From NCBI GenBank assembly GCA_964395545.1, contig CAYNAW010000003.1:1-51741 (forward strand): DNA of 51,741 bases, read 5' to 3'. Within the stretch, counting starts at the first letter, position 1; the number at the start of each line of letters is the position of its first letter. Under the pieces are notes generated by a model, which had not been told where the DNA came from, searched no databases, and saw only the letters and a list, made by a program, of their open reading frames with translations. The position numbers and the translations under genes were made by a program. The DNA is from an uncultured Candidatus Bathyarchaeia archaeon. GTDB lineage: Archaea > Thermoproteota > Bathyarchaeia > Bathyarchaeales > SOJC01. Shown here in pieces: positions 3,110-17,426 of this stretch.

Positions 3110-3145
3110 AACACCTTACCCCTGAGACTGCCATTGCTTGTTTCA

Positions 3146-3496
3146 TTATTGTGTGCATTTTGATTTAATAAGACTTGAGGAATTTCCACGAGCAAAGCCA
3201 CGATAGTGTTTTCTTGACAGATGTGAAATTCTGGAGGCGAAGCGGAATGACAAAGCGAGGGCAAGAGCAGAAGGCTCGTTTTCTCCTTTTGTTTGTTTTT
3301 CTGTTCTCTCGGCATATTTGTTTATCATGAAAATCGTCGTTAGCGCCACTATCGCTCCCAAGAACAATGACGCCGATATCCCAAATTCATTATTCATCTC
3401 GGGCATTCTATCAAGAAGTGTCCAGAAACTCCTGAAAACGAGGACAGATGCAAAAAGCAGAAGAAATTCCCAGAAGATGATCTTGAACATTCTCAT
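3146..3496 (-). CDS. small membrane protein (hypothetical)
   Basis: 116-aa ORF with two hydrophobic helices. TTATATC TATA-like element about 40 nt upstream (plus 3531-3540). Confidence 0.45.
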   Translation of the reverse strand: MRMFKIIFWEFLLLFASVLVFRSFWTLLDRMPEMNNEFGISASLFLGAIVALTTIFMINKYAERTEKQTKGENEPSALALALSFRFASRISHLSRKHYRGFARGNSSSLIKSKCTQ

Positions 3497-3702
3497 TCCC
3501 AGACCTCTGAAAAAGGAGCTTCGCTTGCTTCGGATATAAGATTTCCTAGCCCGTTGTATCTAATATGCCGTGCTAAATCCTCTTTGCACTCGTACCTATT
3601 TACGCGCGCAAAACTGATGCTGCACTATCCTCGATGAAGTGTAAGCCCTTCTGAAGACATCCTCTCGAGAGCTAGAGATATGGTGTCTAACACATCTTGG
3701 AG

Positions 3703-4884
3703 TCACAGTTCCGTTAGAGGAAAATGTGTTCGACGTAAATAGTTCCTGATGTAGTCTTGGTCGTACTCGAATTCCTTGCTTCTGAGAACCTGTCTTTCCA
3801 GTCTGTCTAAGGCTACGCGAAAGGTCGGCTGCACCCCCCATCCTTCACTGGAGCTGTAGAAAGAACCCTTCCTGGTTCGCAGTTGGAGGCGGCAATGAAT
3901 AAGTTGTCTGGCTGAGTAGTTTGTGCCATGAGTCTTCATGTAGATGAACAGCGTGCCAGCCTCTAGCGTTCCTTCGTATCTTCGTGCGAAAGAGTCAAAA
4001 TCGCCCAATATGGAACCTTGCTGGCTTTCATCTATGTCCAAGTCCTTGACGGAAAACTGCACTGCGAGTCTTCGGTCTCGCATTTCTATTTGGGCTATTG
4101 GTTCGAGAAAGTCCAGCTTTGTTATTATCCCCACAGGTCTTCGTCTTCTGACAATCACCAACGAAGATATGTCGAATTTTTGCATTTCGTGCAGTGCATT
4201 CCTCAGTGTTGCTTCAGGCAATACAGTTATGACAGGTTTTGTCATTATGCCCTTTGCTGGAACGTTTAGTAGACGAACCTTTTCGCCAGCTCTCTCGCCA
4301 GGTTTTTGGCGTTGCTTTGGTTGGAAAACATGTTCAATGATATCGTGAATGCTAACAATTCCGACGAGTCTTCCGTTGCTGACTACTGGAATGTGAGAAA
4401 TGTCCTGCTCTCTGAAGAGGTTGAGCACCACTCCCACAGATTCATTTTCCTCAACAACAACGGGTTCCTTACTCATGATTTCCTCAACTCTGCTGTTCCC
4501 CCATTTTCCCATAACAGCCTCGCGAATCACGTCTTCGTCCGTGACAAATCCGAGTATCTTCTCGCTGCTGAAAACTGGAAGTTGCCTAACGCCACTCTCT
4601 ATCATCAGCTTCGCGGCCCGGCTAAGAGAATCCTGTAACGCGACTTTGGGCGCTGAGCGCATCAGAGTCTTGACTTTGGTTACGGAAGGATCAAGCCTAG
4701 ATCTGACTATCCATCTTCTGGCGATTACACCCTTATATTTGCCTCTGTCATCCCAAACGGCTAGAACCAGTGGCATCTCTTTTTTGAGGAGGGAAAGGCA
4801 ACGGGAAAGTGTATCACTCTCGAGAACACTTGCGAAATTTCTTGAAAAGGCGCTTTCAACCTGTGCGGTCATCACGAACTCCAT
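3703..4884 (-). CDS. CBS-domain protein (4 CBS repeats) with C-terminal HPF/RaiA (S30AE)-like domain
   Basis: Four CBS repeats in res ~25-265. The last ~100 aa (VQFSVKDLDIDES...IHCRLQLRTRKGSFYSSSEGWGVQPTFRVALDRLERQVLRSKE) follow the beta-alpha-beta-beta-beta-alpha pattern and the S.EG...A.D.L...L..K signature of bacterial HPF/YfiA. Confidence 0.8.
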   Translation of the reverse strand: MEFVMTAQVESAFSRNFASVLESDTLSRCLSLLKKEMPLVLAVWDDRGKYKGVIARRWIVRSRLDPSVTKVKTLMRSAPKVALQDSLSRAAKLMIESGVRQLPVFSSEKILGFVTDEDVIREAVMGKWGNSRVEEIMSKEPVVVEENESVGVVLNLFREQDISHIPVVSNGRLVGIVSIHDIIEHVFQPKQRQKPGERAGEKVRLLNVPAKGIMTKPVITVLPEATLRNALHEMQKFDISSLVIVRRRRPVGIITKLDFLEPIAQIEMRDRRLAVQFSVKDLDIDESQQGSILGDFDSFARRYEGTLEAGTLFIYMKTHGTNYSARQLIHCRLQLRTRKGSFYSSSEGWGVQPTFRVALDRLERQVLRSKEFEYDQDYIRNYLRRTHFPLTEL

Positions 4885-4952
4885 CCTGGTATATCTATTC
4901 TCAAAGCGCTCAGGGTCCTTAAATAACTACTTTCCCGATCGCCCTATCAGAA

Positions 4953-5381: not shown

Positions 5382-8114
5382 TTGGCTCAGGAAAATGCTT
5401 GGCATGCAGAAAGAGTCGAACAAGTACTCAAAAGACTCGAGACAAGTGAAAGAGGACTAACAAGCGCCGAAGCAGAGAAGAGACTGAGAGAGCACGGGAC
5501 GAACGAACTAGAAGAAGAAAAACGAGCAACCAAATTAGCTTTGCTTGCCCACCAACTCAAGAACCCTCTGGTCGGTGTACTCGTCGCCGCTGCCTTGATT
5601 TCCTTTCTTGCTGGAAAAATGATCGATACCGTAGTTGTGATTGTCGTTATCGTCTTCAACACATCAATTGGTTTCATCCAAGAGCACAAGGCAGAAACCG
5701 CTCTTCAAGCTTTAAAATCAATGGCAGCACCCGAAGCCGAAGTGATTCGTGATTGTCCTGAAACTGGTGGCTGCATCGAAATGCGTGTCAAGGCCCAGGA
5801 AATCGTCCCCGGGGACATAGTGCTTCTGGATTCAGGAGACAAAGTTCCTGCAGATACTCGCGTTCTTGAGGCGATAAACCTCGAAATCGACGAGTCCATG
5901 TTGACTGGTGAATCGACACCGGTGAGAAAAGCGACCGAGCCTTTAGAAGAGGAGTTGCCTGTGGCCGATAGAGCGAACATGGTCTTCTCGGGCACAATAG
6001 TAACCCAAGGAAGAGGGAAAGCAGTCGTAGTCTCCACAGGAATGAAGACAGAGATAGGAAAAATCGCCAAGTTGATAAAAGAGACTAAAAGAGCTGAGAC
6101 TCCCATTCAAAAGCGAACAGTGGACTTGAGCAGGAAACTTGGGCTCTTCGCGTTGTTTGCAAGCGGTTTAGTCCTTGTACTAAGCGTCCTCCGAGGATTC
6201 GAATTTTACGAAGTGTTTCTCTTCGCTTTGGCATCTGCAGTCTCGGCCATCCCGGAGGGGCTGCCCGCAGTTATGACGATCACGTTGGCTGTTGGAGTCA
6301 ACAGGATGGCTAAGCGCAATGCCATAATCCGGAAGCTGCAGGCAGTTGACACTTTGGGCTCAGCAACGGCGATTTGCACCGACAAGACTGGGACTCTCAC
6401 TACAAACCAGATGACCGTACAGAAGATATTCGTGGACAACAGAACGGTCAATGTCACTGGTGCTGGCTATACGCCTGAAGGGCATTTTGAAGTAGAAGGT
6501 GACGCAGTAGATCCGGCGACCGATAACGCGCTCAACCTCTTGCTTCAAATTGCTGCCCTCTGCAACGACGCTAGGCTCAGGCGGCACGAAGTCAAGGAGG
6601 GGTTCCGATGGGAGATCTACGGTGACCCTACAGAAGGGGCATTGGTTGTTGTAGCGGAGAAGGCAAAACTCGTAAAGCATGAATTGGAAAAAAGGTTTCC
6701 ACGAGTCGACGAGATTCCCTTCAACCCCAAGGAGCGATACATGGCTACGTTTCACAAGGCGTCAGATGGAGGCCTAAGCGTCTATGTTAAAGGCGCTCCT
6801 GAGACTCTCTTGGAATGGTGTTCAGAAATTCTGGAAGGCGGCAAGACGAAGAAGCTGACACAACAGAAGAGAGAGGAGATTTTCCGAGCCAGCACTCACA
6901 TGGCCGGAGAGGCGCTCAGGGTGCTGGCAATGGCTTATCAGACAGTAGAAACAAAAGACATAGACAGTTTTAAGGAAAAACTGTTACATAGACGCGCCAA
7001 GCTGGTTCTTGTTGGTCTGGCGGGAATGATCGACCCGTCCAGACCAGAGGCGAAAACTTCAGTGCAACTATGCAAAAGGGCGGGAATCAAGGTCATCATG
7101 GCAACCGGAGATCACAAACTGACGGCAGAGGCTATCGCCAAAGAAGTTGGAATCCTTGAATCGAACTCGAAAGTCCTAACTGGACCGGATCTCGACAGTA
7201 TTGATGATGACGAGTTAGACGCCGTGATAGAAGAAACAGCGGTCTTTGCCCGTGTATCTCCAACACATAAGCACCGAATTGTCGTATCTCTAAGGCGGAA
7301 AGGGCATATTGTGGCTATGACAGGCGATGGTGTCAACGATGCTCCCGCCCTAAAGGCCGCGGAAATCGGCGTTGCGATGGGAATCACGGGAACAGATGTC
7401 ACAAAGGAAACTGCGGACATGGTGTTGGCCGATGACAATTTTGCCAGCATCGTAAACGCAGTCGAAGAAGGCCGTGTAGTGTTTGAAAATATACGAAAAG
7501 TTGTAAAATACTTGATTGCCACCAACACGGGAGAGATCATTACAATATTGACTGCACTCATTCTTCTGCCTGACGCTCCGCTCATTTTCACGCCAGTGCA
7601 AATATTGTGGGTTAATCTTGTAACCGATGGAATCCTCGATGTCACTCTGGCAATGGAGGCAAAAGAAGAAGATATCATGGATCAACCTCCCAGGAAACCT
7701 ACTGCAAAGATAATAAATCGAGAAATTATGATGAACACCATCTATATTGGCACATTTATGATGCTTGGAACTCTCTGGGTTTTCACAAGGGAGTGGAACA
7801 ACGGAGACATTGTCAGAGCGCAGACTCTAGGCTTCACCACTCTGGCCATGTTCCAAGTGTTCAACTCGCTCAACTGCAGATCAAGAACCAAGTCCATATT
7901 CAAGCTTGGCTTGTTTACAAACAGATATTTGTTGGGCGCCATTGCTGTGTCCGTTTCTTTGCAAGTGTTGGCAACGATCTTGCCTCCGCTTCAGATTGGC
8001 CTCGGCACTACTTCGCTTTCGATTTGGGACTGGATAACGATAATCGGTGTTTCAAGTTCAGTCTTCTTCGCTGACGAAATCAGAAAACTATTAAGAAGCA
8101 GGTTAAAGAGATGA
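5382..8114 (+). CDS. P-type cation-transporting ATPase (P2-type, Ca2+/cation pump-like)
   Basis: 910 aa with DKTGTLT phosphorylation motif, TGES, MATGDH, TGDGVNDAPALK and about 10 TM segments. TTG start with SD. Confidence 0.95.
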   Translation: MAQENAWHAERVEQVLKRLETSERGLTSAEAEKRLREHGTNELEEEKRATKLALLAHQLKNPLVGVLVAAALISFLAGKMIDTVVVIVVIVFNTSIGFIQEHKAETALQALKSMAAPEAEVIRDCPETGGCIEMRVKAQEIVPGDIVLLDSGDKVPADTRVLEAINLEIDESMLTGESTPVRKATEPLEEELPVADRANMVFSGTIVTQGRGKAVVVSTGMKTEIGKIAKLIKETKRAETPIQKRTVDLSRKLGLFALFASGLVLVLSVLRGFEFYEVFLFALASAVSAIPEGLPAVMTITLAVGVNRMAKRNAIIRKLQAVDTLGSATAICTDKTGTLTTNQMTVQKIFVDNRTVNVTGAGYTPEGHFEVEGDAVDPATDNALNLLLQIAALCNDARLRRHEVKEGFRWEIYGDPTEGALVVVAEKAKLVKHELEKRFPRVDEIPFNPKERYMATFHKASDGGLSVYVKGAPETLLEWCSEILEGGKTKKLTQQKREEIFRASTHMAGEALRVLAMAYQTVETKDIDSFKEKLLHRRAKLVLVGLAGMIDPSRPEAKTSVQLCKRAGIKVIMATGDHKLTAEAIAKEVGILESNSKVLTGPDLDSIDDDELDAVIEETAVFARVSPTHKHRIVVSLRRKGHIVAMTGDGVNDAPALKAAEIGVAMGITGTDVTKETADMVLADDNFASIVNAVEEGRVVFENIRKVVKYLIATNTGEIITILTALILLPDAPLIFTPVQILWVNLVTDGILDVTLAMEAKEEDIMDQPPRKPTAKIINREIMMNTIYIGTFMMLGTLWVFTREWNNGDIVRAQTLGFTTLAMFQVFNSLNCRSRTKSIFKLGLFTNRYLLGAIAVSVSLQVLATILPPLQIGLGTTSLSIWDWITIIGVSSSVFFADEIRKLLRSRLKR

Positions 8115-9067
8115 GTGCCAAGAAATCGAAATATGAAGTTGAACCCATTTCCATCGAGGAAAAAAACGTGCTAATGGGAAAATACGGTGAACGGCTCTTG
8201 TATGAGGAGAGAGCCGACATCTATGGCTGTTGTATTAAACTCTCCACCGACACAAAGTATGTCAAGGAACGCTGGGAAGAGAACTTCTACCCGATGTCAG
8301 CGCATGTCAGATCTCATGGAAGAATGGTAGTCACCGAAGAAGATGATGAAGAACAGCGCGTATTCTACGACCAGCTTTCGAAAACTGCCTTTCTAATCAA
8401 CGTCGACTATTATGGTTGGGTTAAATCAATAGCCCTCAGTATTGCCAGCGACATCCTTGAAGATAATCATGACATAGACTCAGTTCACGGCGCTTGCATA
8501 GACATTGATGGACAAGGAGTATGCCTAATAGCTCCCTCTGGAACAGGTAAAACAACCCACACCTACGGTCTTCTCAGGCTTCCCGGTGTTCGCGTTGTAT
8601 CCGACGATTGGTTCTTCGTTCGCCTGAGTGCAGGCCAAGCTCTCGCATTCGGTTCTGAGAAAAATTTCTACATCCAAGCCGACATTGCCGACAACTGGGG
8701 CGAATACCAGAAACTGGTAGACAAAGCTGATTTTGACTCAAAGGGCAGAGCAGTCGTCAACGTCAGATGGGTTATTGGCAAAGGAAAAATCTTGCCTATG
8801 ACCACATTGAAGAAAGCTATACTGCTGAAAAGGGAACCCGAGGACAAGGAAATCGTCAGCCGGCTGTCACCAGAAGAAGCAACCCGCTACATGGTAACTG
8901 TCGACTTCTCTAACCCCCACATGCTTGTGAAGGATGAACGAAAGATGAACTTGAGAAGACAATTCTTCAAAAAATTCTTTGCTCCTTTAGAAACCCATGC
9001 TGTTAATACCACAGCTCCAGTGCCTGAAGTTCATAAGGTCATTAAAGAAAACGTGTTAGGGTTATAA
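8111..9067 (+). CDS. HPr kinase/phosphorylase-like (PEPCK-like fold) P-loop protein
   Basis: VHGACIDIDGQGVCLIAPSGTGKTTHTYGLLRLPGVRVVSDDWFFV resembles the HprK C-terminal core (HG..vdi.G.GVLi.G.SG.GKS....L...G..LvaDD). Its ATG overlaps the ATPase stop (ATGA). Confidence 0.65.
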   Translation: MSAKKSKYEVEPISIEEKNVLMGKYGERLLYEERADIYGCCIKLSTDTKYVKERWEENFYPMSAHVRSHGRMVVTEEDDEEQRVFYDQLSKTAFLINVDYYGWVKSIALSIASDILEDNHDIDSVHGACIDIDGQGVCLIAPSGTGKTTHTYGLLRLPGVRVVSDDWFFVRLSAGQALAFGSEKNFYIQADIADNWGEYQKLVDKADFDSKGRAVVNVRWVIGKGKILPMTTLKKAILLKREPEDKEIVSRLSPEEATRYMVTVDFSNPHMLVKDERKMNLRRQFFKKFFAPLETHAVNTTAPVPEVHKVIKENVLGL

Positions 9068-9094
9068 GACAAGTCACTTTGTGTGGGGATCTAT

Positions 9095-10057
9095 GTGCGC
9101 AAAATCGGTGTGGTAACGGCTGGCGGCGATGCCCCTGGAATGAATTCTGCAATCCGCTCGATAGTGCGAACCGCAATATTCAACAAGATGGAAGTTGTGG
9201 GCGTCGAAAGAGGTTACGCGGGGCTTGTTGAAAGAAGGGTTCGCCCTTTGGATATCCGCTCCGTCAGTGGAATAATCAATCTTGGCGGAACAATACTCAG
9301 AACCACGCGATGTGAGGAAATGAAAACTGAAGGAGGGATTCAAAGAGCCAGTAGTACCTTGAGGACTCACAAAATCGATGGGCTAATCGTAATTGGAGGT
9401 GACGGCTCCTTCAGAGGAGCGAGCGAACTACACGATGCCAGCCAGATACCCGTTATAGGAGTACCTGCAACAATAGACAACGACGTCGCAGGCACAGACG
9501 TCACCATAGGCTTTGACACAGCCGTCAACACTGCCCTATTCACAATTGACCGAATTCGTGACACTGCTACTTCTCATGAGCGAGTGTTCGTGGTTGAGGT
9601 GATGGGACGAAAAAGAGGTTTTCTAGCTCTTGCTGTAGGATTCGCTGAAGGTGCCGAGTTCATACTTGTTCCAGAAATCAAATTCAACCTAGAATCCATC
9701 TGCAACAAACTCATGCAAGGACGAAAGAAAGGAAAAACCTCAGAAATAATAGTCATGGCAGAGGGCGCTGGGAATTCCTCTCTAATCGCCGAAGAAATAG
9801 GAAGGAAGACTGGATACGATGTTCGCTTGACAATACTTGGCCATGCTTTGAGAGGAGGACCGCCTACAGCTCAAAGCAGAATCCTCGCCGGCCAATTTGG
9901 AGCACACGCTGTAGACCTCCTTCTGAACGGCGCGAAGAAAAGTATGGTTGGAATAAGAGGGCAACGAATCGTATCAGTGGATTTGGATATTTCCTGGAAG
10001 AGCAAAAAGGATTTGAACAAGCGTTCCTACCGTCTAGCTGAAATCTTATCATCATAA
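9095..10057 (+). CDS. pfkA: 6-phosphofructokinase, PfkA family
   Basis: RKIGVVTAGGDAPGMNSAIR, GGDGSFRGA, PATIDNDV and MGRKRG motifs. GTG 9095 is preferred over GTG 9083 because homologs begin at ..IGVLTSGGDAPGMN and GGGGATC lies upstream. Confidence 0.9.
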   Translation: MRKIGVVTAGGDAPGMNSAIRSIVRTAIFNKMEVVGVERGYAGLVERRVRPLDIRSVSGIINLGGTILRTTRCEEMKTEGGIQRASSTLRTHKIDGLIVIGGDGSFRGASELHDASQIPVIGVPATIDNDVAGTDVTIGFDTAVNTALFTIDRIRDTATSHERVFVVEVMGRKRGFLALAVGFAEGAEFILVPEIKFNLESICNKLMQGRKKGKTSEIIVMAEGAGNSSLIAEEIGRKTGYDVRLTILGHALRGGPPTAQSRILAGQFGAHAVDLLLNGAKKSMVGIRGQRIVSVDLDISWKSKKDLNKRSYRLAEILSS

Positions 10058-10207
10058 TGGGGGATTGAATTCGTAGACCCTACGAGCGAGAATGAAAACT
10101 GGAGAGTAGAGAGTTGCTGACTTTGAATCCCCTCAATTTGGGAGAGTCTAAGATCACAGAATTATCAACCACTGCAAACGTTGAAGTTGAAGAAAGGAGG
10201 AGAAAAC

Positions 10208-11320
10208 ATGTATGAACTTCTCATAGAATTGTTGGTGGGCGTTCTAAGAGGCATAGTCTATGGCGGAGCCGCAGCTTTTCCCATAATCTTCCTATCATTA
10301 ATATTTAGATATTTCACGAATGAGAAGCTGCCCTCATTCATAGGTATAATCTTAGGCCTGGGAATTCTAGGTATCTCAGGTGGTCTTATCGCGGTGCTAG
10401 AGCAGACTACAGTTGAAGGTGTCACTCAGGTCGTCATTGCTAGCATTGTGATTGTTTGGAGCGTTGGCGTTGGAGACAAGATGGCTGAAAGGATCCCAAA
10501 GGGAGGAGAACCCCTGTTCCACGCGCTGAAAGGTAGAAAATCAAAATACATTACGATAAAACTGCCTAATAGGCGCTTGATATACGATATATCAGGAAAG
10601 CCACGAGTTATTGACGAACTCAAAGATGAGTTGTCCGAGAGAGAATTCGTCTTACCCCTTGACTTTTCAATAGAAGAGATGGTCAGTAGGATTAGAAGAA
10701 GACTGATCTCAGACTGGGGCGTTGGCGATGTCGAACTCGAATTGGATAGAATGGGCAAAGTGGTCTATCTTGCAGTATCAGCTAAGGAATTTGGTCTCAG
10801 TGAAACAACGCCAAAAGGAAGGATAGCGGTACCCGTAAAATGCGATATGATTCCTTCTGGCTTATCCTCTAATGACATCGTAAGAATTTACTTGAAAGAC
10901 AAGGTAGTCATTGACCAGGTTGAGGTCAAAGGTGTAAGCAAAGAAGACAAGATAGTCACCGTTGTCGTGGATCCAGACTCTTTTGAGAAAATCATGGAAA
11001 AAGAGGCACAATTGATCGTAGCTCTGCCATTCGCGAAACGGAAGTCTGTTCCGATTACCGTGAAGAAACGTTCAGGTACACTTGAAGAGTTCAACATTGA
11101 AAAAATATTCTCTTCAATTGTAGATGCGGGGGCTCATGAGGAATTGGCAAAAGAGATCGCTGAAAAGATTGAAGCGAGATTCTCCAAACTAACTACCCCC
11201 ATCGAAACGGAAGAATTGAAGGAAATTGTCGTTGAGGAATTGGAGAAAGCAGACCTGCAGATTTCTAAGAAATTCAAGAATTACAAGAAATCAGCGAGGC
11301 CACAATCGAGGTCACAGTGA
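10208..11320 (+). CDS. membrane-anchored protein with C-terminal ATP-cone domain
   Basis: About 3 N-terminal TM helices and a central soluble region. The C-terminus ITVKKRSGTLEEFNIEKIFSSIVDAGAHEELAKEIAEKIE...TEELKEIVVEELE...KFKNYKK matches the ATP-cone consensus. ATG 10208 is preceded by AGGAGG; the track start at 10181 is TTG. Confidence 0.8.
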   Translation: MYELLIELLVGVLRGIVYGGAAAFPIIFLSLIFRYFTNEKLPSFIGIILGLGILGISGGLIAVLEQTTVEGVTQVVIASIVIVWSVGVGDKMAERIPKGGEPLFHALKGRKSKYITIKLPNRRLIYDISGKPRVIDELKDELSEREFVLPLDFSIEEMVSRIRRRLISDWGVGDVELELDRMGKVVYLAVSAKEFGLSETTPKGRIAVPVKCDMIPSGLSSNDIVRIYLKDKVVIDQVEVKGVSKEDKIVTVVVDPDSFEKIMEKEAQLIVALPFAKRKSVPITVKKRSGTLEEFNIEKIFSSIVDAGAHEELAKEIAEKIEARFSKLTTPIETEELKEIVVEELEKADLQISKKFKNYKKSARPQSRSQ

Positions 11321-11470
11321 ATTTGGAAGGAATTTGGTGAAACTCGCGATACGCGGGCGAGCTGTTCGTTATACCGCGACCAAAGTCAAAAGCTAAATGC
11401 TGAAGACAGGAAAGCTACAATGGGACTCCGGATTTATTAGTTCGCTCGGAAGGAGAGGAGGAAAAGCAGG

Positions 11471-13147
11471 ATGGAAGATCTACAAGAAACGATCAAAGAG
11501 GAGAAAATCTCCTATTTTTCAATGGAAATAGGACTATCTAATGAAATCCATACATACTCTGGAGGCTTGGGAGTTCTCGCTGGCGATACGATAAGGGCAA
11601 GCGCAGATCTGAAACTACCACTTGTGGCTGTCACATTGGTGAGCAAAAAGGGATACTTTAGGCAAGAATTAACACATGATGGACGGCAGATTGAATATCC
11701 TCAAGAGTGGAACCCATTTCAATTTATGAAACTGCTGCCCGTGGAGACGAGTGTACAGATTCAAGATAGAAACGTGAGGATCAAAACCTGGCTTTACAGA
11801 GTGCAAAGCATAACAGGAGGAATGGTTCCAGTCCTTTTTCTCGATACGGATGTGGAAGGAAACATTCCTGAAGATAGAGAGATCACTTTCTTTCTTTACG
11901 GAGGGGATGAGAAATACAGGCTAAGACAGGAGATTGTTTTGGGAATCGGCGGCGTAAGAATGCTTGATGCTTTGGGCTTCAAAATCAGAAGATATCACAT
12001 GAACGAAGGTCACTCTAGCCTTCTTGCCTTAGAGCTATTGAACAGGTTTGGGATGAACCTTGAAAGGGTTCGCGAGTCGTGTATTTTTACAACTCACACT
12101 CCAGTGGAAGCAGGACATGACAGGTTTTCATATGATACTGTTAGAGAGATTCTGGGACAAAACACTGATTTGGAAGTCTTGAAAAGATTCAGTGGTTATG
12201 ACGAACTAAACATGACGCGCCTAGCCCTAAATCTGAGCAACTACATCAATGGAGTAGCCAAAAAGCATCGTGAGGTTTCCAGGCAGATGTTTCCGGGTTA
12301 TGAGATTCACGCAATAACAAACGGCATTCACTCTTACACATGGACGTGCAGGGGTTTTAAGAAACTATATGACAAATATCTGCCCGGCTGGGCAAACGAT
12401 CCAGATCTGCTTGTAAGAGTGGACAGTATTCCTGACGAAGACATTTGGGAAGCCCATGAAGAAGCAAAAAAGGTTCTGATTGATCACGTTAACAACGCAA
12501 CCAACGTGGGTATGGATTACAATACGTTAACCTTAGGATTCGCAAGAAGGGCGACAGAATACAAAAGGGCTAACCTTCTGTTCTCAGATATAGAAAAACT
12601 GAGAAAAGCAAATAGACAGGGTAAGATGCAGCTAATTTTTGCTGGAAAAGCTCACCCCCGAGACGATTCGGGGAAAAGGCTAATCAAAGAAACTTTTGAC
12701 TACATCGAAAGGCTGAAGAATGAAATCAAGATCGTCTATTTAGAGAATTACGACATGGAACTCGCGGCAACATTAATCTCTGGAGTTGATGTTTGGCTTA
12801 ACACGCCTTTACAACCCATGGAGGCTTCTGGCACAAGCGGAATGAAGGCAGCTCACAACGGCGTGATAAACTTCAGCGTATTAGACGGTTGGTGGATTGA
12901 AGGCTGGATTGAGGGAGTCACCGGCTGGGCTATCGGATTTCACCCAGACGACCATAGGTCACTGGAGGAAAGCCAACTTAGAGAGCTTGATGACCTGTAC
13001 AGCAAGTTGGAAAACGTGGTCATTCCTATGTTCTACCAGAAAAGAGCTGATTGGATAAAAATGATGAGAAATTCGATAGGAAAGATCGCTTACTACTTTA
13101 ACAGTCACAGGATGATGCGCAGATACGTAACCGAAGCTTACTTGTGA
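11471..13147 (+). CDS. glgP: alpha-glucan (glycogen/maltodextrin) phosphorylase, GT35
   Basis: YFSMEIGL...YSGGLGVLAGD N-terminus and EASGTSGMKAAHNG pyridoxal-phosphate lysine motif. Strong SD GGAGAGGAGG. Confidence 0.9.
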   Translation: MEDLQETIKEEKISYFSMEIGLSNEIHTYSGGLGVLAGDTIRASADLKLPLVAVTLVSKKGYFRQELTHDGRQIEYPQEWNPFQFMKLLPVETSVQIQDRNVRIKTWLYRVQSITGGMVPVLFLDTDVEGNIPEDREITFFLYGGDEKYRLRQEIVLGIGGVRMLDALGFKIRRYHMNEGHSSLLALELLNRFGMNLERVRESCIFTTHTPVEAGHDRFSYDTVREILGQNTDLEVLKRFSGYDELNMTRLALNLSNYINGVAKKHREVSRQMFPGYEIHAITNGIHSYTWTCRGFKKLYDKYLPGWANDPDLLVRVDSIPDEDIWEAHEEAKKVLIDHVNNATNVGMDYNTLTLGFARRATEYKRANLLFSDIEKLRKANRQGKMQLIFAGKAHPRDDSGKRLIKETFDYIERLKNEIKIVYLENYDMELAATLISGVDVWLNTPLQPMEASGTSGMKAAHNGVINFSVLDGWWIEGWIEGVTGWAIGFHPDDHRSLEESQLRELDDLYSKLENVVIPMFYQKRADWIKMMRNSIGKIAYYFNSHRMMRRYVTEAYL

Positions 13148-13264
13148 CTTGTTATAATAGCAGAAATGGCCCGAATTGATGCCCCGCGATAGACGTATTC
13201 TTGGATTGTCTCCCGATTGCTTTGCACAGTTGTTTTTTATAACTGAAGTGCATAAACATCGTCT

Positions 13265-13684
13265 ATGGACCTTTCAACTCTTATTGAATCAGTTTTATGT
13301 CTTATTCTAGCAATTGTTCTAGGGGCCATTGTTGGGATCGAGAGAGAAATAACCCATAAACCCGCGGGACTAAGGACGCACATGCTTGTGTCCCTGGGAT
13401 CCTGCCTGTTCACAATCGTTTCGCTATACGAGTTTGGCGTGGACCCCGCTAGAATAGCTGCAGGAATAGTCACAGGAATCGGTTTCATAGGTGCCGGAAC
13501 AATAATCGCTGAACAAGACAAAGTCGTTGGGATCACAACTGCTTCGAGCTTATGGGTGACCGCAGCGATCGGCTTGACAGCAGGAGTTGGGAACCACCCA
13601 TTAGCTATTGTGGCGACTTTGCTGGTGTTTCTGGTGTTATCCTCAAGAATGATTCTGAGAGAGATACGCATGCAACAGAATTGA
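13265..13684 (+). CDS. mgtC: MgtC/SapB family membrane protein
   Basis: GIEREITHKPAGLRTHMLVSLGSCLFT and GIGFIGAGTI motifs, about 4 TM segments. Confidence 0.85.
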   Translation: MDLSTLIESVLCLILAIVLGAIVGIEREITHKPAGLRTHMLVSLGSCLFTIVSLYEFGVDPARIAAGIVTGIGFIGAGTIIAEQDKVVGITTASSLWVTAAIGLTAGVGNHPLAIVATLLVFLVLSSRMILREIRMQQN

Positions 13685-13718: not shown

Positions 13719-14561
13719 CTATAAGGGTATTTTTCTGCCGTCGAAGTCTCTCTTGCAGCGTCCAAACTCGTCTTCAACTTCTCGGAGACGTTCACTTGTG
13801 AAGATGGGGCCGTCTATGCACACGCGGTATTTGCCGATTGTGCAGCTGCCGCATAGTCCTATGGCGCAACGCATGAGCCTTTCTAGACTCGCCTGCAAGG
13901 GGATTTTGTGTTTTTCGGCCAGCAAGTAGACTTTGAAAAGCATCGGTTCTTTTCCACAAGTGTAAATCATGTCAAACTTGTCTCTTCTTAAGATGCTCTC
14001 CGCCAGCTCTGTTACAACTCCTTTATGTCCGTAGCTTCCATCTTCTGTGGACGCTGCTAACTCGGTTCCTTCCTTCGAAAGCAGGTTCTTGAGCCTTGCT
14101 AGGAAAAGCAGCTCTTCTTTAGACTTAGCACCTAGTACGAATGTGACTTTCGCTCCCAGTTTCAGCAGGTTCTCTGACAAGAAAGCGAGCGGGGCTATTC
14201 CGGTTCCGCCGCCTACTAAGAGAGCTTTGCCCCTTATTGGCTGGAAGTGGTTGCCGAATGGACCTCGAACACCGATGGTTTCGTCTTTTCGCTTTTTATG
14301 CAGAAGCTCGGTGGCGTCGCCCACTTTTGCCACTGTTATCGAAGCTAGATCTTTGGAGGCAGCAGAAAGGCTCATGGGAATCTCGTCGAAGCCTGGAAGC
14401 CAGACCATGACAAACTGTCCAGGCTTACCTCCTGCACAGAGCGGGTCGTCGAAGTAGAAGGTTTTGACGAGAGGGCTTTCCCTGACTATTTTCCTGATTC
14501 TTACTGTTCTCTGGAAGTTAGTTTCGATGGGAACTGCCGACAATTTCTTCAACACTTCCAA
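13719..14561 (-). CDS. pyrK: dihydroorotate dehydrogenase electron-transfer subunit
   Basis: FAD/NAD-binding ferredoxin-reductase fold (GQFVMVW, LLVGGGTGIAP) and C-terminal 2Fe-2S Cys cluster CAIGLCGSCTIG..VCIDGP. Lies downstream of and overlaps pyrD. Confidence 0.9.
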   Translation of the reverse strand: MEVLKKLSAVPIETNFQRTVRIRKIVRESPLVKTFYFDDPLCAGGKPGQFVMVWLPGFDEIPMSLSAASKDLASITVAKVGDATELLHKKRKDETIGVRGPFGNHFQPIRGKALLVGGGTGIAPLAFLSENLLKLGAKVTFVLGAKSKEELLFLARLKNLLSKEGTELAASTEDGSYGHKGVVTELAESILRRDKFDMIYTCGKEPMLFKVYLLAEKHKIPLQASLERLMRCAIGLCGSCTIGKYRVCIDGPIFTSERLREVEDEFGRCKRDFDGRKIPL

Positions 14562-15429
14562 TTCTTTTCTTCCTCAGAAAGGCGTCTATTCCCTCTGTCA
14601 CATGTTTGAACACTTCTAATCCTCTAAATGCAATTGCTGTCCCGATTTGGATTGCTGATGCACCTGCATGGATGAACTCGACCGCGTCTCGCCACGAGCT
14701 GATTCCGCCGCATCCTATGACTGGGACTTTCACGGTTTCATAGACATCGTAGACGCACCGAACCGCTATCGGCTTGATCGCCGGACCCGACAAGCCTCCG
14801 ACCTTGTTCCCAAGAATAGGCTTGGCAGTCTCCACATCTATCACCATAGCCTTCACGGTGTTTATGGTGGTCACGCCATCCGCGCCTCCTTTCTCTGCGG
14901 CTCTAGCCACCTCTGCAATGCTGGCGACGTTGGGCGTCAACTTGACAAAAACTGGTTTTTCCACCTTTCTCTTTACGGCCTTTACCACTTCCTCAACAAG
15001 CCTTAGGTCTTGCCCAATCTCGGCGCCAGTTTTCTCTGCATGGGGACATGAAACGTTTAGCTCCACTCCTCCTGCACCGATTTTCACGGCTTGTTCGGCC
15101 ACTGCAGCGAATTCCTGAGGTGTGTAGGCGTAGACGCTGGCTATTACGGGAACTCCTATTCCACTCGCTTCACGCATTTCCTGGGCAAAATGCTCGACGC
15201 CGGGGTTGGGAAGCCCCATCGCGTTAATCAGTCCACAGTCAACCTGCGCCACGGTGGGGTTGGAGTATCCACAGCGAGGCTGTAGACCCAATGATTTCGT
15301 GACAACCGCGCCTGCCCCTGCCTGTGCCACCCGCTTCAGCGTGAAACCCGACATGCCGAGTATTCCTGCCGCCAACATCGTGGGATTCTTCAGTTTCAGG
15401 CCTGCAAGATTTACCGTCAAATCCGCCAA
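14518..15429 (-). CDS. pyrD: dihydroorotate dehydrogenase (class 1B) catalytic subunit
   Basis: NPTMLAAG, NAMGLPNPG, ELNVSCPH and GGLSGPAIKPIA motifs. Confidence 0.95.
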   Translation of the reverse strand: MADLTVNLAGLKLKNPTMLAAGILGMSGFTLKRVAQAGAGAVVTKSLGLQPRCGYSNPTVAQVDCGLINAMGLPNPGVEHFAQEMREASGIGVPVIASVYAYTPQEFAAVAEQAVKIGAGGVELNVSCPHAEKTGAEIGQDLRLVEEVVKAVKRKVEKPVFVKLTPNVASIAEVARAAEKGGADGVTTINTVKAMVIDVETAKPILGNKVGGLSGPAIKPIAVRCVYDVYETVKVPVIGCGGISSWRDAVEFIHAGASAIQIGTAIAFRGLEVFKHVTEGIDAFLRKKRIGSVEEIVGSSHRN

Positions 15430-15520
15430 GGGAAACCCCTGCCTCAGTAAAGGTTATTCATCAGCAGAGATAAAGGTTAGGAAAGGTTTAGATTGTTAAC
15501 CTCTAGGACGAAGAAGAATC

Positions 15521-16753
15521 ATGAAGGTAACTGTAATAGCTTCCCTTCTGGGCGTCTTTGGGTTTGACGAGGACGGCAAGGTAATCGACAAAATCCTGTT
15601 TGACAGGCAACCCAAGCTCATTGCCGAAAAGCTTAGTCTGGTCGAGGCTGGAAGAACGATAGATGAGATAGCTGAACTAGTGGATAACCTGAGGAAAGAG
15701 GGCTACACGCCCTTTGCTTTTGAGAACGATGATATTGCGAGAGAAATCGAGAGGAAGCTGGAAGTAAAAGTTGAGGGTGTGCCTTCTTCTCGGCAGGGCG
15801 AAATTCTGCGTAAGAACATTGAGCAGTTTGCTTTAGAAGTGGGGTTCGTCTCGCAGTCAGAGAAGCTAAGAGAGTTAGTTCGCCAAGTTTCCATAGAGCT
15901 CACCAAGCTGCGAGTCAAGACAGCGGGGGAAAAGAAGGATTTGATGATCGCTCAAGCCATCTTGAGCATCGACGACTTGGATAAGACTGCAAACCTTTTC
16001 ATGGGAAGGATACGCGAGTGGTATGGTCTGCATTTTCCAGAACTGGACCGCCTCGTGGAGAAACATGAGACATACGCCAAACTCGTATTAACCTTGGGAA
16101 GACGGGGAAATTTCACTTTGGATAGCTTGGGGAAAGAAGACCTGCCGGTAAACAGGGCTGAGCTGATCAAGGAGATGGCTGAGAAATCTATGGGCGCAGA
16201 GTTGGCGGATATGGACATCGAGCAAATACAGGCACTGTGCAAGCAGACCTTGGAGCTCTACCGCTTAAGACAAGTTCTGGAGGACTATGCAGATTCGACC
16301 GTGGCAGACGTTGCTCCAAACGTTCAAGCCCTCGCAGGTTCACTCTTAGCAGCTCGCCTGATAGCCCTTGCTGGAGGACTGAACAACCTCGCAAAGATGC
16401 CGGCGAGCACGATACAGGTCTTGGGTGCAGAAAAAGCCCTTTTCAGAGCTCTAAAAACAGGGGCAAGACCTCCAAAACATGGGATCATATTCCAAGACAC
16501 CTTGATCCACGAAGCAAAGAAGTGGCAGAGGGGAAAGATGTCTAGAGCTTTGGCAGGTAAACTGGCTATAGCCGCTAGAACTGACGCCTTCAGCGGTAGG
16601 TACATAGGCGACTCTTTGAAAGCTGACTTAAAGAAACGAATCGACGAGATCAAGGAAAAATACAAAAAACCGCCACCCCCGAAGGAAGTGAAGCAGAAGA
16701 AGTTCAAGCCTGCTGCTAAAAAATGGAGAAAGAAACGTGGCCATCGAAGTTAA
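15521..16753 (+). CDS. nop5: C/D box sRNP core protein Nop5 (Nop56/58)
   Basis: NOP domain (AGSLLAARLIALAGGLNNLAKMPASTIQVLGAEKALFRAL) and KKxK-rich C-terminal tail. Immediately upstream of fibrillarin. Confidence 0.95.
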   Translation: MKVTVIASLLGVFGFDEDGKVIDKILFDRQPKLIAEKLSLVEAGRTIDEIAELVDNLRKEGYTPFAFENDDIAREIERKLEVKVEGVPSSRQGEILRKNIEQFALEVGFVSQSEKLRELVRQVSIELTKLRVKTAGEKKDLMIAQAILSIDDLDKTANLFMGRIREWYGLHFPELDRLVEKHETYAKLVLTLGRRGNFTLDSLGKEDLPVNRAELIKEMAEKSMGAELADMDIEQIQALCKQTLELYRLRQVLEDYADSTVADVAPNVQALAGSLLAARLIALAGGLNNLAKMPASTIQVLGAEKALFRALKTGARPPKHGIIFQDTLIHEAKKWQRGKMSRALAGKLAIAARTDAFSGRYIGDSLKADLKKRIDEIKEKYKKPPPPKEVKQKKFKPAAKKWRKKRGHRS

Positions 16754-17426
16754 GCCTCACCCAGATTTCCAAGGCGTATACTGGGTAACGCTGGAAGATG
16801 GCGCACAAAGACTGGCTACTGAAAACCTAGCTCCCGGGAGGAGCGTCTATGGTGAACGCCTAATCCGTTCTAGAGGGGTTGAATACAGACTTTGGGATCC
16901 TTTCCGCAGCAAACTCGCTGCAGCTATACTTAAAGGAGTGACCGTTCCGATTCGGCCAAGTCACAAAGTCCTGTACTTGGGTGCGGCGTCAGGAACGACG
17001 GTGAGCCACGTTTCGGACATTGTTGGAAAGCACGGTCGTGTGTACTGCGTGGAGTTCGCGGCACGTTCGATGCGTGAGTTGGTCAACAACGTGTGTGCCT
17101 TCCGTTCCAACATGACACCGATACTTGAGGACGCGAGGATGCCTGAGCGGTATTCAATGTTTATGGAGACGGTTGATGTCATCTACTGTGATATAGCGCA
17201 GCCTGAGCAAGCTAAGGTGTTGGCTGATAATGCTGAGTTGTTTCTGAGGAAAGATGGGTGGATCATGCTTGCAGTGAAGTCGCAGAGCATCGACGTCACT
17301 AAAGACCCTATACAAGTGTATAGACAAGAGGTCAGAGTTTTGGAGCGTCGTGGTTTTGCAGTCCAAACGGTCGTGCAGCTTGAACCCTACGAAAAAGCGC
17401 ACGCGATGATCGTGTCCAAAACCTAA
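16737..17426 (+). CDS. flpA: fibrillarin-like rRNA/tRNA 2'-O-methyltransferase
   Basis: YRLWDPFRSKLAAAIL, VLYLGAASGTTVSHVSDIV and DIAQPEQA motifs. 17-nt overlap with nop5. Confidence 0.95.
   Translation: MAIEVKPHPDFQGVYWVTLEDGAQRLATENLAPGRSVYGERLIRSRGVEYRLWDPFRSKLAAAILKGVTVPIRPSHKVLYLGAASGTTVSHVSDIVGKHGRVYCVEFAARSMRELVNNVCAFRSNMTPILEDARMPERYSMFMETVDVIYCDIAQPEQAKVLADNAELFLRKDGWIMLAVKSQSIDVTKDPIQVYRQEVRVLERRGFAVQTVVQLEPYEKAHAMIVSKT

Follow-up and report, generated by a model that had tools for sequence, protein, structure and literature searches.

The window, a stretch of 51,741 nucleotides from an uncultured archaeon of the Bathyarchaeia, carries at 10208..11320 (+ strand, stop codon included) a gene for a 370-aa membrane protein of the DUF8167 family with a C-terminal ATP-cone, as recognised from the open reading frame, from full-length homologues and from Pfam. 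The reading frame ending at 11320 (+) has two alternative starts, TTG 10181 and ATG 10208; a Shine-Dalgarno-like GGAGGAG, read directly at 10196..10202 (+) and thus 5 nt 5' of ATG 10208, makes the 370-aa product likely. Its upstream neighbour encodes an ATP-dependent 6-phosphofructokinase (PFK; 9083..10057, +; NF002872, 402 bits) and its downstream neighbour an alpha-glucan (glycogen/maltodextrin) phosphorylase (GlgP; 11471..13147, +; TIGR02094, 567 bits), and the gene is separated from each of them by exactly 150 nt, as the original prediction had it. Profile matches further identified an upstream same-strand block of a P-type ATPase of type IIA (Ca2+-type; 5382-8114, +) with a P-loop protein resembling HprK_C (8111-9067, +), which as a block (5382..9067, +) is conserved in the homologous loci L022/L119 and L056; downstream follows an MgtC-family membrane protein (13265..13684, +; 135 bits).

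The two flanking gaps vary in length and sequence among relatives, and what relatives share of the upstream gap is confined to a purine-rich stretch. No riboswitch or other RNA element was detected in either gap by Rfam. That the gene forms a separate transcription unit, as had been proposed, is unproven: a TATA-like A/T box recurs 5' of the start codon, but neither gap contains a T-run of more than 3 nt and a 78%-identical relative has gaps of only 33 and 61 nt. Composition gives no support for a recent insertion between pfkA and glgP, the GC3 of the gene being 0.447 and that of its neighbours 0.446 and 0.465. The DUF8167 protein is single-copy in the window, where tblastn found no second paralogue; its only match, a weak one at 43337-43429, lies antisense inside a prolyl-tRNA synthetase gene.

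Architecture of the DUF8167 protein

An AlphaFold model of the 370-aa protein was obtained with a mean pLDDT of 82. Its N-terminal membrane domain (aa 1-95; 10208..10492, +) comprises three transmembrane (TM) helices according to hydropathy, model helices and conserved columns: three hydrophobic stretches, aa 4-37, 39-66 and 68-92, match model helices at aa 2-37, 43-65 (with a kink at G58-G59) and 69-95, in agreement with the three-TM anchor predicted originally. TM2 is rich in glycine and resembles a glycine zipper (G46xxxG50xG52xxG55xxG58G59), and two conserved motifs, F-T-N-E-K (aa 36-40) and G-D-K (aa 89-91), are located at the predicted cytoplasmic face. From the positive-inside distribution we infer that the N-terminus is outside and that everything past TM3 is cytoplasmic. 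The membrane segments contain no conserved charged residue that could mark an ion site, and the TM domain showed neither similarity to families of Pfam, NCBIfam or the PDB nor a recognisable pore or transport domain. This result lowers the probability that the protein belongs to a known channel family, though not that it works in a channel-like manner.

The region of about 165-170 aa that follows had been taken for a linker. It is instead a folded module of two subdomains, the best conserved part of the protein with most of its invariant residues, and it is modelled with confidence (pLDDT about 90, and 87 in a dedicated model of aa 108-280). Subdomain 1 (aa 112-193; 10541..10786, +; pLDDT 84-95) corresponds to DUF8167_2nd, has a modelled beta-beta-alpha-beta-alpha-beta-beta topology and carries the invariant residues P120, D127, K139, L142, E146, P150, R164, R165, D169 and W170. 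Subdomain 2 (aa 197-274; 10796..11029, +) is small and mostly beta in the model; it ends in a conserved '..IVALP' junction, the attachment point of the C-terminal sensor. Neither subdomain has a significant counterpart among solved structures: subdomain 1 gave no significant match and subdomain 2 only weak beta-barrel resemblances (probability <=0.75, E >=0.2), and a Foldseek search of the PDB with the model of aa 108-280 yielded nothing significant (best E=0.087, probability 0.30). No signal of an internal duplication between the two subdomains was detected. The family profile retrieved no sequence relatives with solved structures, nor did a query with the sequence of the cone by itself, and the DUF8167 core showed no detectable similarity to channels, transporters or enzymes by sequence or fold. 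An RCK_C/TrkA_C-like fold of the central region, suggested originally as something to look for, was rejected, as Pfam gave no TrkA_C match, none appeared in the Foldseek top 50, and hhalign against the TrkA_C domains of distant relatives returned probabilities of 0.1% and 2.8%. A short 'LxxGDxV' motif is the sole coincidence between the central module and TrkA_C.

The C-terminal domain (aa 283-362; 11054..11293, +) is an ATP-cone, as originally predicted, and this identity is confirmed well beyond chance by Pfam, by the fold and by column composition. PF03477 matches aa 284-356 with 42 bits (E=1.4e-10; profile positions 2-79 of 88), above the gathering score of 25.8 bits. NCBIfam matches are confined to the N-terminal cones of anaerobic ribonucleotide reductases (RNRs), where the first ~90 positions alone of the NrdD models match with 15-21 bits against cut-offs above 500. 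The modelled domain has the beta-hairpin 'roof' (strands aa 284-286 and 292-294) followed by the four-helix bundle (aa 297-306, 311-325, 334-348 and 350-362) that define the ATP-cone fold, and it superposes on solved NrdD, NrdB, NrdA and NrdR cones with about 2.0-2.6 A rmsd (Foldseek; 88-97 columns, ~90 residues; probability 1.00). In Streptomyces coelicolor NrdR the residues V48, K50, R51, E56 and K62 contact the nucleotide, and the cones of RNR and NrdR work through control of oligomerisation (PMC9110341). V285, K287, R288, E293 and K299 are the predicted contact residues of the window cone, with the same spacing as the five of NrdR; beyond these the cone has T334, K338 and, in its basic last helix, K354, K355, K357, K360 and K361. 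The window cone thus presumably binds a nucleotide. All five contact residues are kept in only 16 of 131 cone-type relatives, and two or more are lost in 50 of them, so that ATP sensing may be a property of its own sub-lineage and not of the family.

The closest RNR cones are those of the class III NrdD enzymes of S. thermophilus and P. copri, besides those of NrdA and of L. blandensis NrdB. They belong to the same Pfam family and fold, share 24-27% identity and the contact residues with the window cone, and the basic last helix of the latter resembles PcNrdD with its R87/R91. By analogy, the ligands (ATP/dATP) and the nucleotide-dependent oligomer contacts are presumably the same. However, RNRs are soluble enzymes with an N-terminal cone, whereas the window protein is anchored in the membrane and its cone is C-terminal; it has no catalytic or radical-generating domain, so that membership in RNR was rejected, and the output would be the membrane module instead. 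Aravind, Wolf and Koonin reportedly described in 2000 an archaeal 2-phosphoglycerate kinase with an N-terminal ATP-cone, a precedent for a cone beyond RNR and NrdR in an archaeal protein tied to glycolytic intermediates; unlike the window protein, this kinase would be soluble and free of a membrane domain, and the two are presumably not homologous outside the cone.

Family, exchange of the C-terminal sensor and gene context

Membership in DUF8167 was established through P0001, a 99%-identical protein with PF26501 (DUF8167), PF26502 (DUF8167_2nd) and PF03477; the first two were taken from the precomputed annotation of P0001 and of nearly all homologues, and the window protein was assigned via P0001. 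Full-length homologues form about 160 clusters at 90% identity and come for the most part from Bathyarchaeia. When the core profile was used in a second, word-indexed homology search, the same family alone came up, whereas relatives with TrkA_C surfaced in an exhaustive search of representatives, in which the core alone found 237 of them with E values down to 1e-29 for haloarchaeal proteins. The 3TM plus central core accordingly occurs in Bathyarchaeia and Halobacteria. Haloarchaeal proteins annotated as 'potassium transporter TrkA' (PF26501-PF26503) have a core homologous to that of the window protein; PF26503 (DUF8167_3rd) is recorded for these and for none of the Bathyarchaeial members, yet many of the haloarchaeal proteins align with the core profile all the way to aa 274. 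They differ from the single-copy, ATP-cone-bearing window protein in that they end in TrkA_C or long acidic tails and are encoded by tandem, translationally coupled paralogues. Two copies are present in several Bathyarchaeial MAGs, too (L012/L028, L006/L036, L034/L035).

TrkA_C was found at the C-terminus of 68 of the 107 distant core relatives and CBS in 2 of 107. In Bathyarchaeia the C-terminal sensor is either an ATP-cone or a CBS pair, and the CBS variants share the '..IVALP' junction and diverge precisely there. Throughout the superfamily, members have ~3 TM helices at the N-terminus only, and an AAE-type transporter (TM - TrkA_C - TM) was rejected as there is no second TM block. On ion channels and transporters, TrkA_C and CBS domains typically serve as regulators on the cytoplasmic side. 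The three-way exchange of ATP-cone, CBS pair and TrkA_C on one core marks the tail as regulatory input and the DUF8167 core as output, and from the relatives that have other ligand sensors at the same position we predict that the protein is probably a nucleotide-controlled membrane device. In the databases all homologues go under the names 'hypothetical' and 'ATP cone domain-containing protein' or, by mis-transfer, under 'NrdR family' and 'potassium transporter TrkA', and literature searches for DUF8167 and for ATP-cones in Bathyarchaeota or in membrane proteins found nothing, which supports the initial impression of an uncharacterised architecture.

No universally conserved gene neighbour was found: the 137 immediate neighbours (±2 genes) represent 122 different Pfam families, and roughly 110 of some 125 homologous loci lack carbohydrate genes within 8 kb. 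The order pfkA-X-glgP is kept in close relatives only (at least 75% identity; L055, L056, L059 and L060), with adjacency to PFK in L055 and L056 and to GlgP in L055, L059 and L060. Linkage to glgP in other gene orders recurs in two to three further clades, namely in L037/L040, where the order is reversed and glgP is located directly upstream of a CBS-type homologue, in L022/L119, where an ATPase-HprK-PFK-GlgP block lies 640 bp away and divergent from the homologue, and loosely in L042. For the family as a whole the genomic context is therefore largely random, as it is not for the lineage of the window, and the functional tie to pfkA and glgP that had been suspected is only partly supported, the linkage being limited to close relatives and, for glgP, to these few clades.

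Genes for ion transport are a minority among the neighbours in Bathyarchaeia, and TrkA_N occurs in 3 of the 137 immediate neighbours. A TrkA_N channel-like gene is located directly 3' of the homologue in L012 and L031, CorA is encoded divergently from it in L089 and L103 and stands at position -3 in L037/L040, MgtC is found nearby in the window, L060 and L033, and a P-type ATPase in the window, L056 and L022/L119. The haloarchaeal DUF8167 pairs adjoin, divergently, a K+ channel with Ion_trans_2 and TrkA_N domains in four of five loci; these four are not independent because they have a wider synteny in common. In the most populous Bathyarchaeial clade the gene is preceded by one for a Snf7-like coiled-coil protein and followed by one for a membrane-anchored HTH protein (10 of 43 GTDB loci, 16 of 80 metagenome loci).

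Proposed adenylate sensing and candidate outputs

The explanation that we prefer, tentatively and at nearly an even chance, is that an adenylate-sensing domain controls, via oligomerisation, a conserved membrane module whose function is possibly ion-related. The three TM helices and the cytoplasmic two-subdomain module (~165 aa) would together form the effector, and the C-terminal domain would be an interchangeable cytoplasmic ligand sensor. Because the sensor of the window protein is a canonical ATP-cone, we propose that it reads the adenine-nucleotide pool (ATP versus dATP/ADP), i.e. the energy or nucleotide status of the cell. To our knowledge, nucleotide-dependent contacts between cones, or between a cone and its partner, alter the oligomeric state in all characterised ATP-cones. 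By analogy, binding of the nucleotide may rearrange an oligomer of central modules, and this change would be passed on by the FTNEK and GDK motifs to the glycine-rich TM bundle, switching the membrane module on or off. Oligomerisation is plausible in view of the glycine-zipper-like TM2, the tandem paralogues of Halobacteria and the MAGs with two copies. The output would most likely concern K+/Mg2+ homeostasis, with the protein controlling either the flux of cations or a transporter for them. As the gene in this lineage is part of a block of P-type ATPase, HprK-like protein, PFK, glycogen phosphorylase and MgtC, the energy signal that prompts glycogen breakdown would also set the handling of ions at the membrane. 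Whether DUF8167 proteins are in general unrecognised small ligand-gated channels of archaea, or regulators of channels or transporters, gated by plug-in sensors (TrkA_C in Halobacteria, a CBS pair or ATP-cone in Bathyarchaeia), is more doubtful, and we regard this wider proposal as less likely than not.

The design, a membrane module with a cytoplasmic ligand- or nucleotide-binding regulatory domain, is that of MgtE, CorC/CNNM, MthK, KtrAB and Kef, and the sensor types of CBS-regulated Mg2+ systems and RCK/TrkA_C-regulated K+ systems are found at the same position in relatives of the window protein. Nevertheless, none of these proteins is similar to the TM or central part in sequence or fold; the window protein has three TM helices only and no selectivity filter or known ion-site motif, and its order (TM - central module - sensor) deviates from that of CorC (TM - CBS - CorC_HlyC).

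Since the gene has pfkA on one side and glgP on the other, all on one strand, and neither gap contains an oligo-T terminator, the protein could also be, as the original reading implied, an energy-charge regulator of glycogen catabolism, in which the cone senses ATP and the central module binds or sequesters PFK and/or GlgP, or glycogen granules, at the membrane. The conserved order in relatives of 75-80% identity, with gaps down to the 33 and 61 nt mentioned above, the recurrence of glgP linkage in other clades and gene orders (L037/L040, L022/L119), and a GH15 glucoamylase directly upstream of the haloarchaeal DUF8167 pair in L054 favour this model, the more so as a rough estimate puts the likelihood that a single-copy gene of a ~2 Mb genome falls within 8 kb by chance at <1% per locus. 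We nevertheless consider regulation of glycogen enzymes unlikely. The great majority of loci have no carbohydrate gene nearby, and in L022/L119 PFK adjoins GlgP directly without a DUF8167 gene in between, which indicates that the enzyme pair does not need DUF8167 in cis. Loci linked to glgP also contain P-type ATPase, CorA or MgtC genes, so that it is not possible to ascribe the association to the sugar enzymes in particular, and neither a membrane anchor nor haloarchaeal relatives with TrkA_C next to K+ channels would be predicted for a regulator of soluble enzymes.

The many invariant charged or polar residues of the central module (D127, K139, E146, R164, R165, D169, W170, E176, E178, D223, E239) are present at a density typical of an active or ligand site and suggest yet another function for the core, that of an enzyme or of a signalling or receptor module. 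The sensor would then set a catalytic activity at the membrane, or a tethered protein would regulate a partner such as the membrane-anchored HTH or the Snf7-like protein encoded beside it in the most populous clade. CBS domains and ATP-cones are textbook regulators of enzymes as well, e.g. of IMPDH and RNR. This possibility appears improbable to us, since the core resembles no catalytic fold or Pfam enzyme family, the synteny of Snf7-like, HTH+TM, thymidylate kinase and beta-propeller genes belongs to one clade (65-98% identity) and is absent from the window, and TrkA_C, again by textbook knowledge, resides overwhelmingly on transport proteins. Least credible of all, and hardly worth entertaining, is a role in the regulation of deoxynucleotide synthesis, in the manner of NrdR or in connection with RNR, as one JGI annotation ('transcriptional regulator NrdR family protein') would have it. 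NrdR is likewise small, has an ATP-cone as its sole recognisable sensor, with V/K/R/E/K contact residues at a spacing identical to that of the window cone, and provides the top Foldseek matches; moreover, a thymidylate kinase is encoded two genes upstream of the homologue in one clade. Yet beyond the cone those alignments deviate by about 8-15 A rmsd (RNR cones fit with about 2 A), and where NrdR has a Zn-ribbon (two CxxC) that binds NrdR boxes, the window protein has three TM helices, no CxxC pair, no Zn-ribbon match and no DNA-binding domain. The absence of the Zn-ribbon effectively refutes membership in NrdR. In addition, neither NrdR boxes nor RNR genes are involved, no RNR gene was seen in the surveyed neighbourhoods, and relatives have CBS or TrkA_C in place of the cone.

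ATP-cones have so far been studied almost exclusively as allosteric switches of RNRs and of the repressor NrdR, and a canonical cone on a membrane module would extend ATP-cone sensing to membrane physiology. If the wider proposal of DUF8167 proteins as ligand-gated channels, or as regulators of channels or transporters, proves true, this would be the first ATP-cone that gates a membrane function, for a domain so far known only as a master switch of dNTP synthesis, and adenylate status would be coupled to the flux of cations (K+/Mg2+) and, in the lineage of the window, also to the mobilisation of glycogen. The exchange of sensors provides an uncharacterised family, present in the Bathyarchaeia and Halobacteria and thus in two archaeal groups of ecological importance, with a concrete and testable functional hypothesis. 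For the uncultivated Bathyarchaeia, which abound in sediments, the DUF8167 protein may also represent a link between energy status, ion homeostasis and the use of glycogen.

Domain organisation of the membrane-anchored ATP-cone protein

The open reading frame of protein X extends on the forward strand from 10181 to 11320. A GGAGGAG at 10196-10202 precedes the ATG at 10208, so that the 370-aa protein encoded by 10208-11320 is the likely product. Hydropathy places three hydrophobic segments inside residues 4-92, and an AlphaFold model built on 47 homologues (mean pLDDT 82) has long helices at residues 2-37, 43-65 (kinked at G58-G59) and 69-95, which bears out the predicted 3-TM anchor. By the positive-inside rule, the segment after TM3 and the loop with the conserved FTNEK motif (residues 36-40) are predicted to be cytoplasmic, the side on which an ATP sensor has to be. 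In the model, TM3 is followed by a tether of some 15 residues modelled with low confidence, a compact beta-beta-alpha-beta-alpha-beta-beta subdomain (112-193), a second compact and mostly beta subdomain (197-274) and, after another short tether, a domain of a beta-hairpin and four helices.

The region of about 170 residues that the original prediction had taken for a linker is instead the conserved heart of the protein. Most invariant positions of the family alignment fall in residues 118-274, among them P120, D127, K139, L142, S143, E146, P150, R164, R165, L166, W170, G196, S198, P209, P216, D223 and T251, and residues 108-280 modelled alone reached a pLDDT of 87. The RCK_C/TrkA_C-like fold suggested for this region was not recovered: no TrkA_C structure occurred in the top 50 Foldseek matches, profile-profile comparison with genuine TrkA_C domains gave probabilities of 0.1% and 2.8%, and the sole overlap is an 'LxxGDxV' motif. 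A Foldseek search of residues 108-280 against the PDB returned no significant neighbour (best E=0.087, probability 0.30) and only vague beta-barrel and beta-grasp resemblances.

The C-terminal domain was correctly recognised as an ATP-cone. Pfam places it at residues 284-356 with 42 bits versus a gathering score of 25.8 (E=1.4e-10), and the significant PDB matches of the model in Foldseek are all ATP-cones, those of NrdD, NrdB and NrdA fitting at 2.0-2.6 Å over about 90 residues with 19-27% identity. The NrdR of S. coelicolor contacts nucleotides through V48, K50, R51 and E56 in the inner and K62 in the outer site (PMC9110341), the NrdD of P. copri through Lys7, Arg8, Arg87 and Arg91 (PMC11226230). 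Since X has V285, K287, R288, E293 and K299, spaced exactly as the NrdR contacts, and a lysine-rich last cone helix, its cone seems equipped for binding an adenine nucleotide, and we infer binding from these residues. Profile, fold and contact residues all assign X to the ATP-cone family. All five contact residues are kept in only 16 of 131 cone-type members, including X and its closest relatives; the K50 equivalent alone, usually replaced by Q, is lost in 65, and two or more residues are lost in 50. ATP sensing is thus best supported for the sub-lineage of X; in other members the cone may be vestigial or have a different ligand.

Exchange of sensor domains in the DUF8167 family

Precomputed Pfam matches (PF26501 and PF26502, DUF8167 and DUF8167_2nd) and homology of the core (residues 1-274) make X a member of DUF8167, a catalogued but unstudied family of which we found no mention in the literature searched. 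Clustered at 90% identity, the homologues of X fall into about 160 groups, with Bathyarchaeia MAGs and sediment metagenomes as the source of nearly all of them; their annotations read 'hypothetical', 'ATP cone domain-containing' or, in error, 'NrdR family'. One sub-branch (P0105-P0118, about 400 aa) shares the TM and central regions with X as far as the conserved '..IVALP' junction and carries a CBS pair instead of the cone. An exhaustive HMM search with the core alone among 1.84 billion representatives (E 1e-3 or better) yielded 237 proteins. The C-terminus is TrkA_C in 68 and CBS in two of the 107 distant core relatives scanned; those named are Halobacteria (Halorhabdus, Natronococcus, Halobaculum), annotated as 'hypothetical' or 'potassium transporter TrkA'. 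All relatives have about three N-terminal TM helices, and a second membrane block is absent in all those examined. One conserved core of three TM helices and central module is hence joined, at the same position, to three different ligand-binding regulatory domains. In this arrangement the tail serves as input and the core as output. This sensor swapping is the strongest evidence on how X is organised.

Several Bathyarchaeial MAGs hold two DUF8167 copies on different contigs (L012/L028, L006/L036, L034/L035). Either a tandem copy or a frameshift within one gene could account for a second ORF matching the family that directly follows the first in L032 and L036.

Genomic context

As originally described, X lies between an ATP-dependent phosphofructokinase (PFK; 9083-10057, +; NF002872, 402 bits) and an alpha-glucan phosphorylase (GlgP; 11471-13147, +; TIGR02094, 567 bits), with gaps of exactly 150 nt on both sides. 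Further out on the same strand are a type-IIA (Ca2+-type) P-type ATPase, an HprK_C-like P-loop protein (8111-9067, +; Pfam 31 bits, just under the 33.3 cut-off, with further weak PEPCK-like and HprK-related matches) whose start codon overlaps the ATPase stop, and MgtC (13265-13684) downstream of GlgP. The HprK_C-like gene, which also occurs in L056, has been inherited together with pfkA in L022/L119 (82% identity), and its product is a candidate for a still uncharacterised, kinase-like partner of the PFK/GlgP block. The downstream aNOP56 and fibrillarin genes mark the window as archaeal, and X resembles its neighbours in composition (GC3 0.447 vs 0.446 and 0.465). GC3 is 0.45-0.49 across the block from the HprK-like gene to MgtC (8111-13684) and about 0.55 in the adjacent pyrK, pyrD, aNOP56 and fibrillarin genes (13719-17423), with a whole-window GC of 0.508; in its history, too, the entire glycolytic/ion block may differ from the sequence around it. 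Two CBS-domain proteins are encoded upstream on the reverse strand, one with a weak RseP-like region and a CBS pair (2003-3109), the other with tandem CBS pairs and a C-terminal domain (3706-4884); L024 and L026 have homologues of the latter close to their DUF8167 genes.

That X is a separate transcription unit cannot be affirmed. Neither gap contains a T-run longer than 3 nt or an Rfam match, but a short TATA-like A/T box recurs among relatives and is, with a purine-rich ribosome-binding stretch, the only conserved part of gaps that vary from 33 to 150 nt. X may share a transcript with pfkA and glgP or have a promoter of its own.

We surveyed 43 GTDB species-representative and 80 further metagenomic loci. 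Among the GTDB loci, a PFK is near the homologue in one (L022) and a phosphorylase within 8 kb in four (L022, L037, L040, L042); the immediate neighbours (n=137) belong to 122 different Pfam families. Relatives with 75-80% identity to X keep the order PFK-X-GlgP (L055, gaps of 33 and 61 nt), ATPase-HprK-like-PFK-X (L056) or X-GlgP(-MgtC) (L059, L060). In L022/L119 the ATPase-HprK-like-PFK-GlgP block is intact, 70-82% identical to that of the window and with PFK and GlgP adjacent, while a 47%-identical X homologue lies 640 bp away on the opposite strand. In L037/L040 a phosphorylase is directly upstream of the CBS-type homologue. As the glgP-linked loci fall in separate clades of a neighbour-joining tree, the carbohydrate link is recurrent and, by rough estimate, commoner than chance; it is missing from about 110 of 125 loci. 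The pfkA/glgP context originally pointed out is kept in close relatives and is lineage-specific.

Ion-transport genes also adjoin family members. Tandem DUF8167 paralogue pairs of Halobacteria (L044 4742-8304, L047 4769-7533, L048 4772-7992, L052 5001-7423, L054 5001-7990) overlap at their stop and start codons, a hint that the two products form a hetero-oligomer. In four of these five loci, which share wider synteny, the pair is flanked by a divergently oriented Ion_trans_2+TrkA_N K+ channel gene and followed by a ThiS-like gene. In the Halobaculum locus L054, a GH15 glucoamylase/glucodextranase (1995-4913) is directly upstream on the same strand, which makes a second and independent case of an alpha-glucan-degrading enzyme beside a family member, and a bacteriorhodopsin (8031-8822) is downstream. 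A TrkA_N channel-like gene directly follows the homologue in L012 (9158-10264) and L031 (9093-9824); it has a pore-like 'TTVGMYS', not the canonical K+ filter TVGYG, ahead of TrkA_N. A CorA Mg2+ channel is divergent at about 150 nt from cone-type homologues (L089 4058-5119, -; L103 985-2046, -) and three genes upstream of the CBS-type ones in L037/L040 (L037 3887-4963), and MgtC adjoins homologues in the window, L060 and L033. The gene order is fixed in the most populous Bathyarchaeial clade, of 65-98% identity (L010 7217-7876, L013 9161-9619; equivalents in L002, L004, L005, L009, L015, L021, L025 and L075-L099; 16 of the 80 further metagenomic loci): a Snf7-like protein (220-aa coiled coil, weak Snf7/ESCRT-III match, E=4e-4), the DUF8167-cone gene, an HTH protein of 153 aa with C-terminal TM helices and a beta-propeller protein, with thymidylate kinase two genes upstream.

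Mechanistic model and alternatives

On ion channels and transporters, CBS pairs and TrkA_C are typical regulatory domains of the cytoplasmic side, and the design of X resembles that of CBS- or RCK-regulated transporters such as MgtE, CorC, MthK and Ktr. ATP-cones act through nucleotide-dependent changes of oligomeric contacts (PMC9110341). Binding of an adenine nucleotide to the cone would presumably re-arrange an oligomer of central modules, and this change may be relayed through the conserved motifs of the cytoplasmic face, FTNEK and GDK (residues 89-91), and the glycine-rich TM2 to switch the membrane module. The output would most likely be a cation flux or the control of a cation transporter, and the position of the gene inside the ATPase/PFK/GlgP/MgtC block suggests that, in the lineage of X, this output may be tuned together with glycogen breakdown. 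We advance this complete sequence, a nucleotide-switched membrane module with a proposed cation output, with slightly less than even confidence. Much safer, and in our judgement likely to be correct, is its narrower part, that a regulatory tail sensing adenylates is attached to a conserved membrane effector.

A membrane-tethered energy-charge regulator of PFK/GlgP, to which the gene order could point, we consider unlikely; the order is kept in close relatives of X and absent from most loci. That the core is an enzyme or a signalling module with no relation to transport seems equally improbable. X is outside every known channel or transporter family. An NrdR-like regulator is hardly conceivable, because X has no Zn-ribbon; NrdR chains rank high in the Foldseek search but fit over the cone only, and we rejected an assignment as NrdR on these grounds. 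X was likewise rejected as a ribonucleotide reductase, its NCBIfam matches being only N-terminal cone segments of the anaerobic enzymes.

We found no experimental precedent for a cone on a membrane protein. X joins a known sensor to a membrane effector of an uncharacterised family, and represents a real and well-defined lead.
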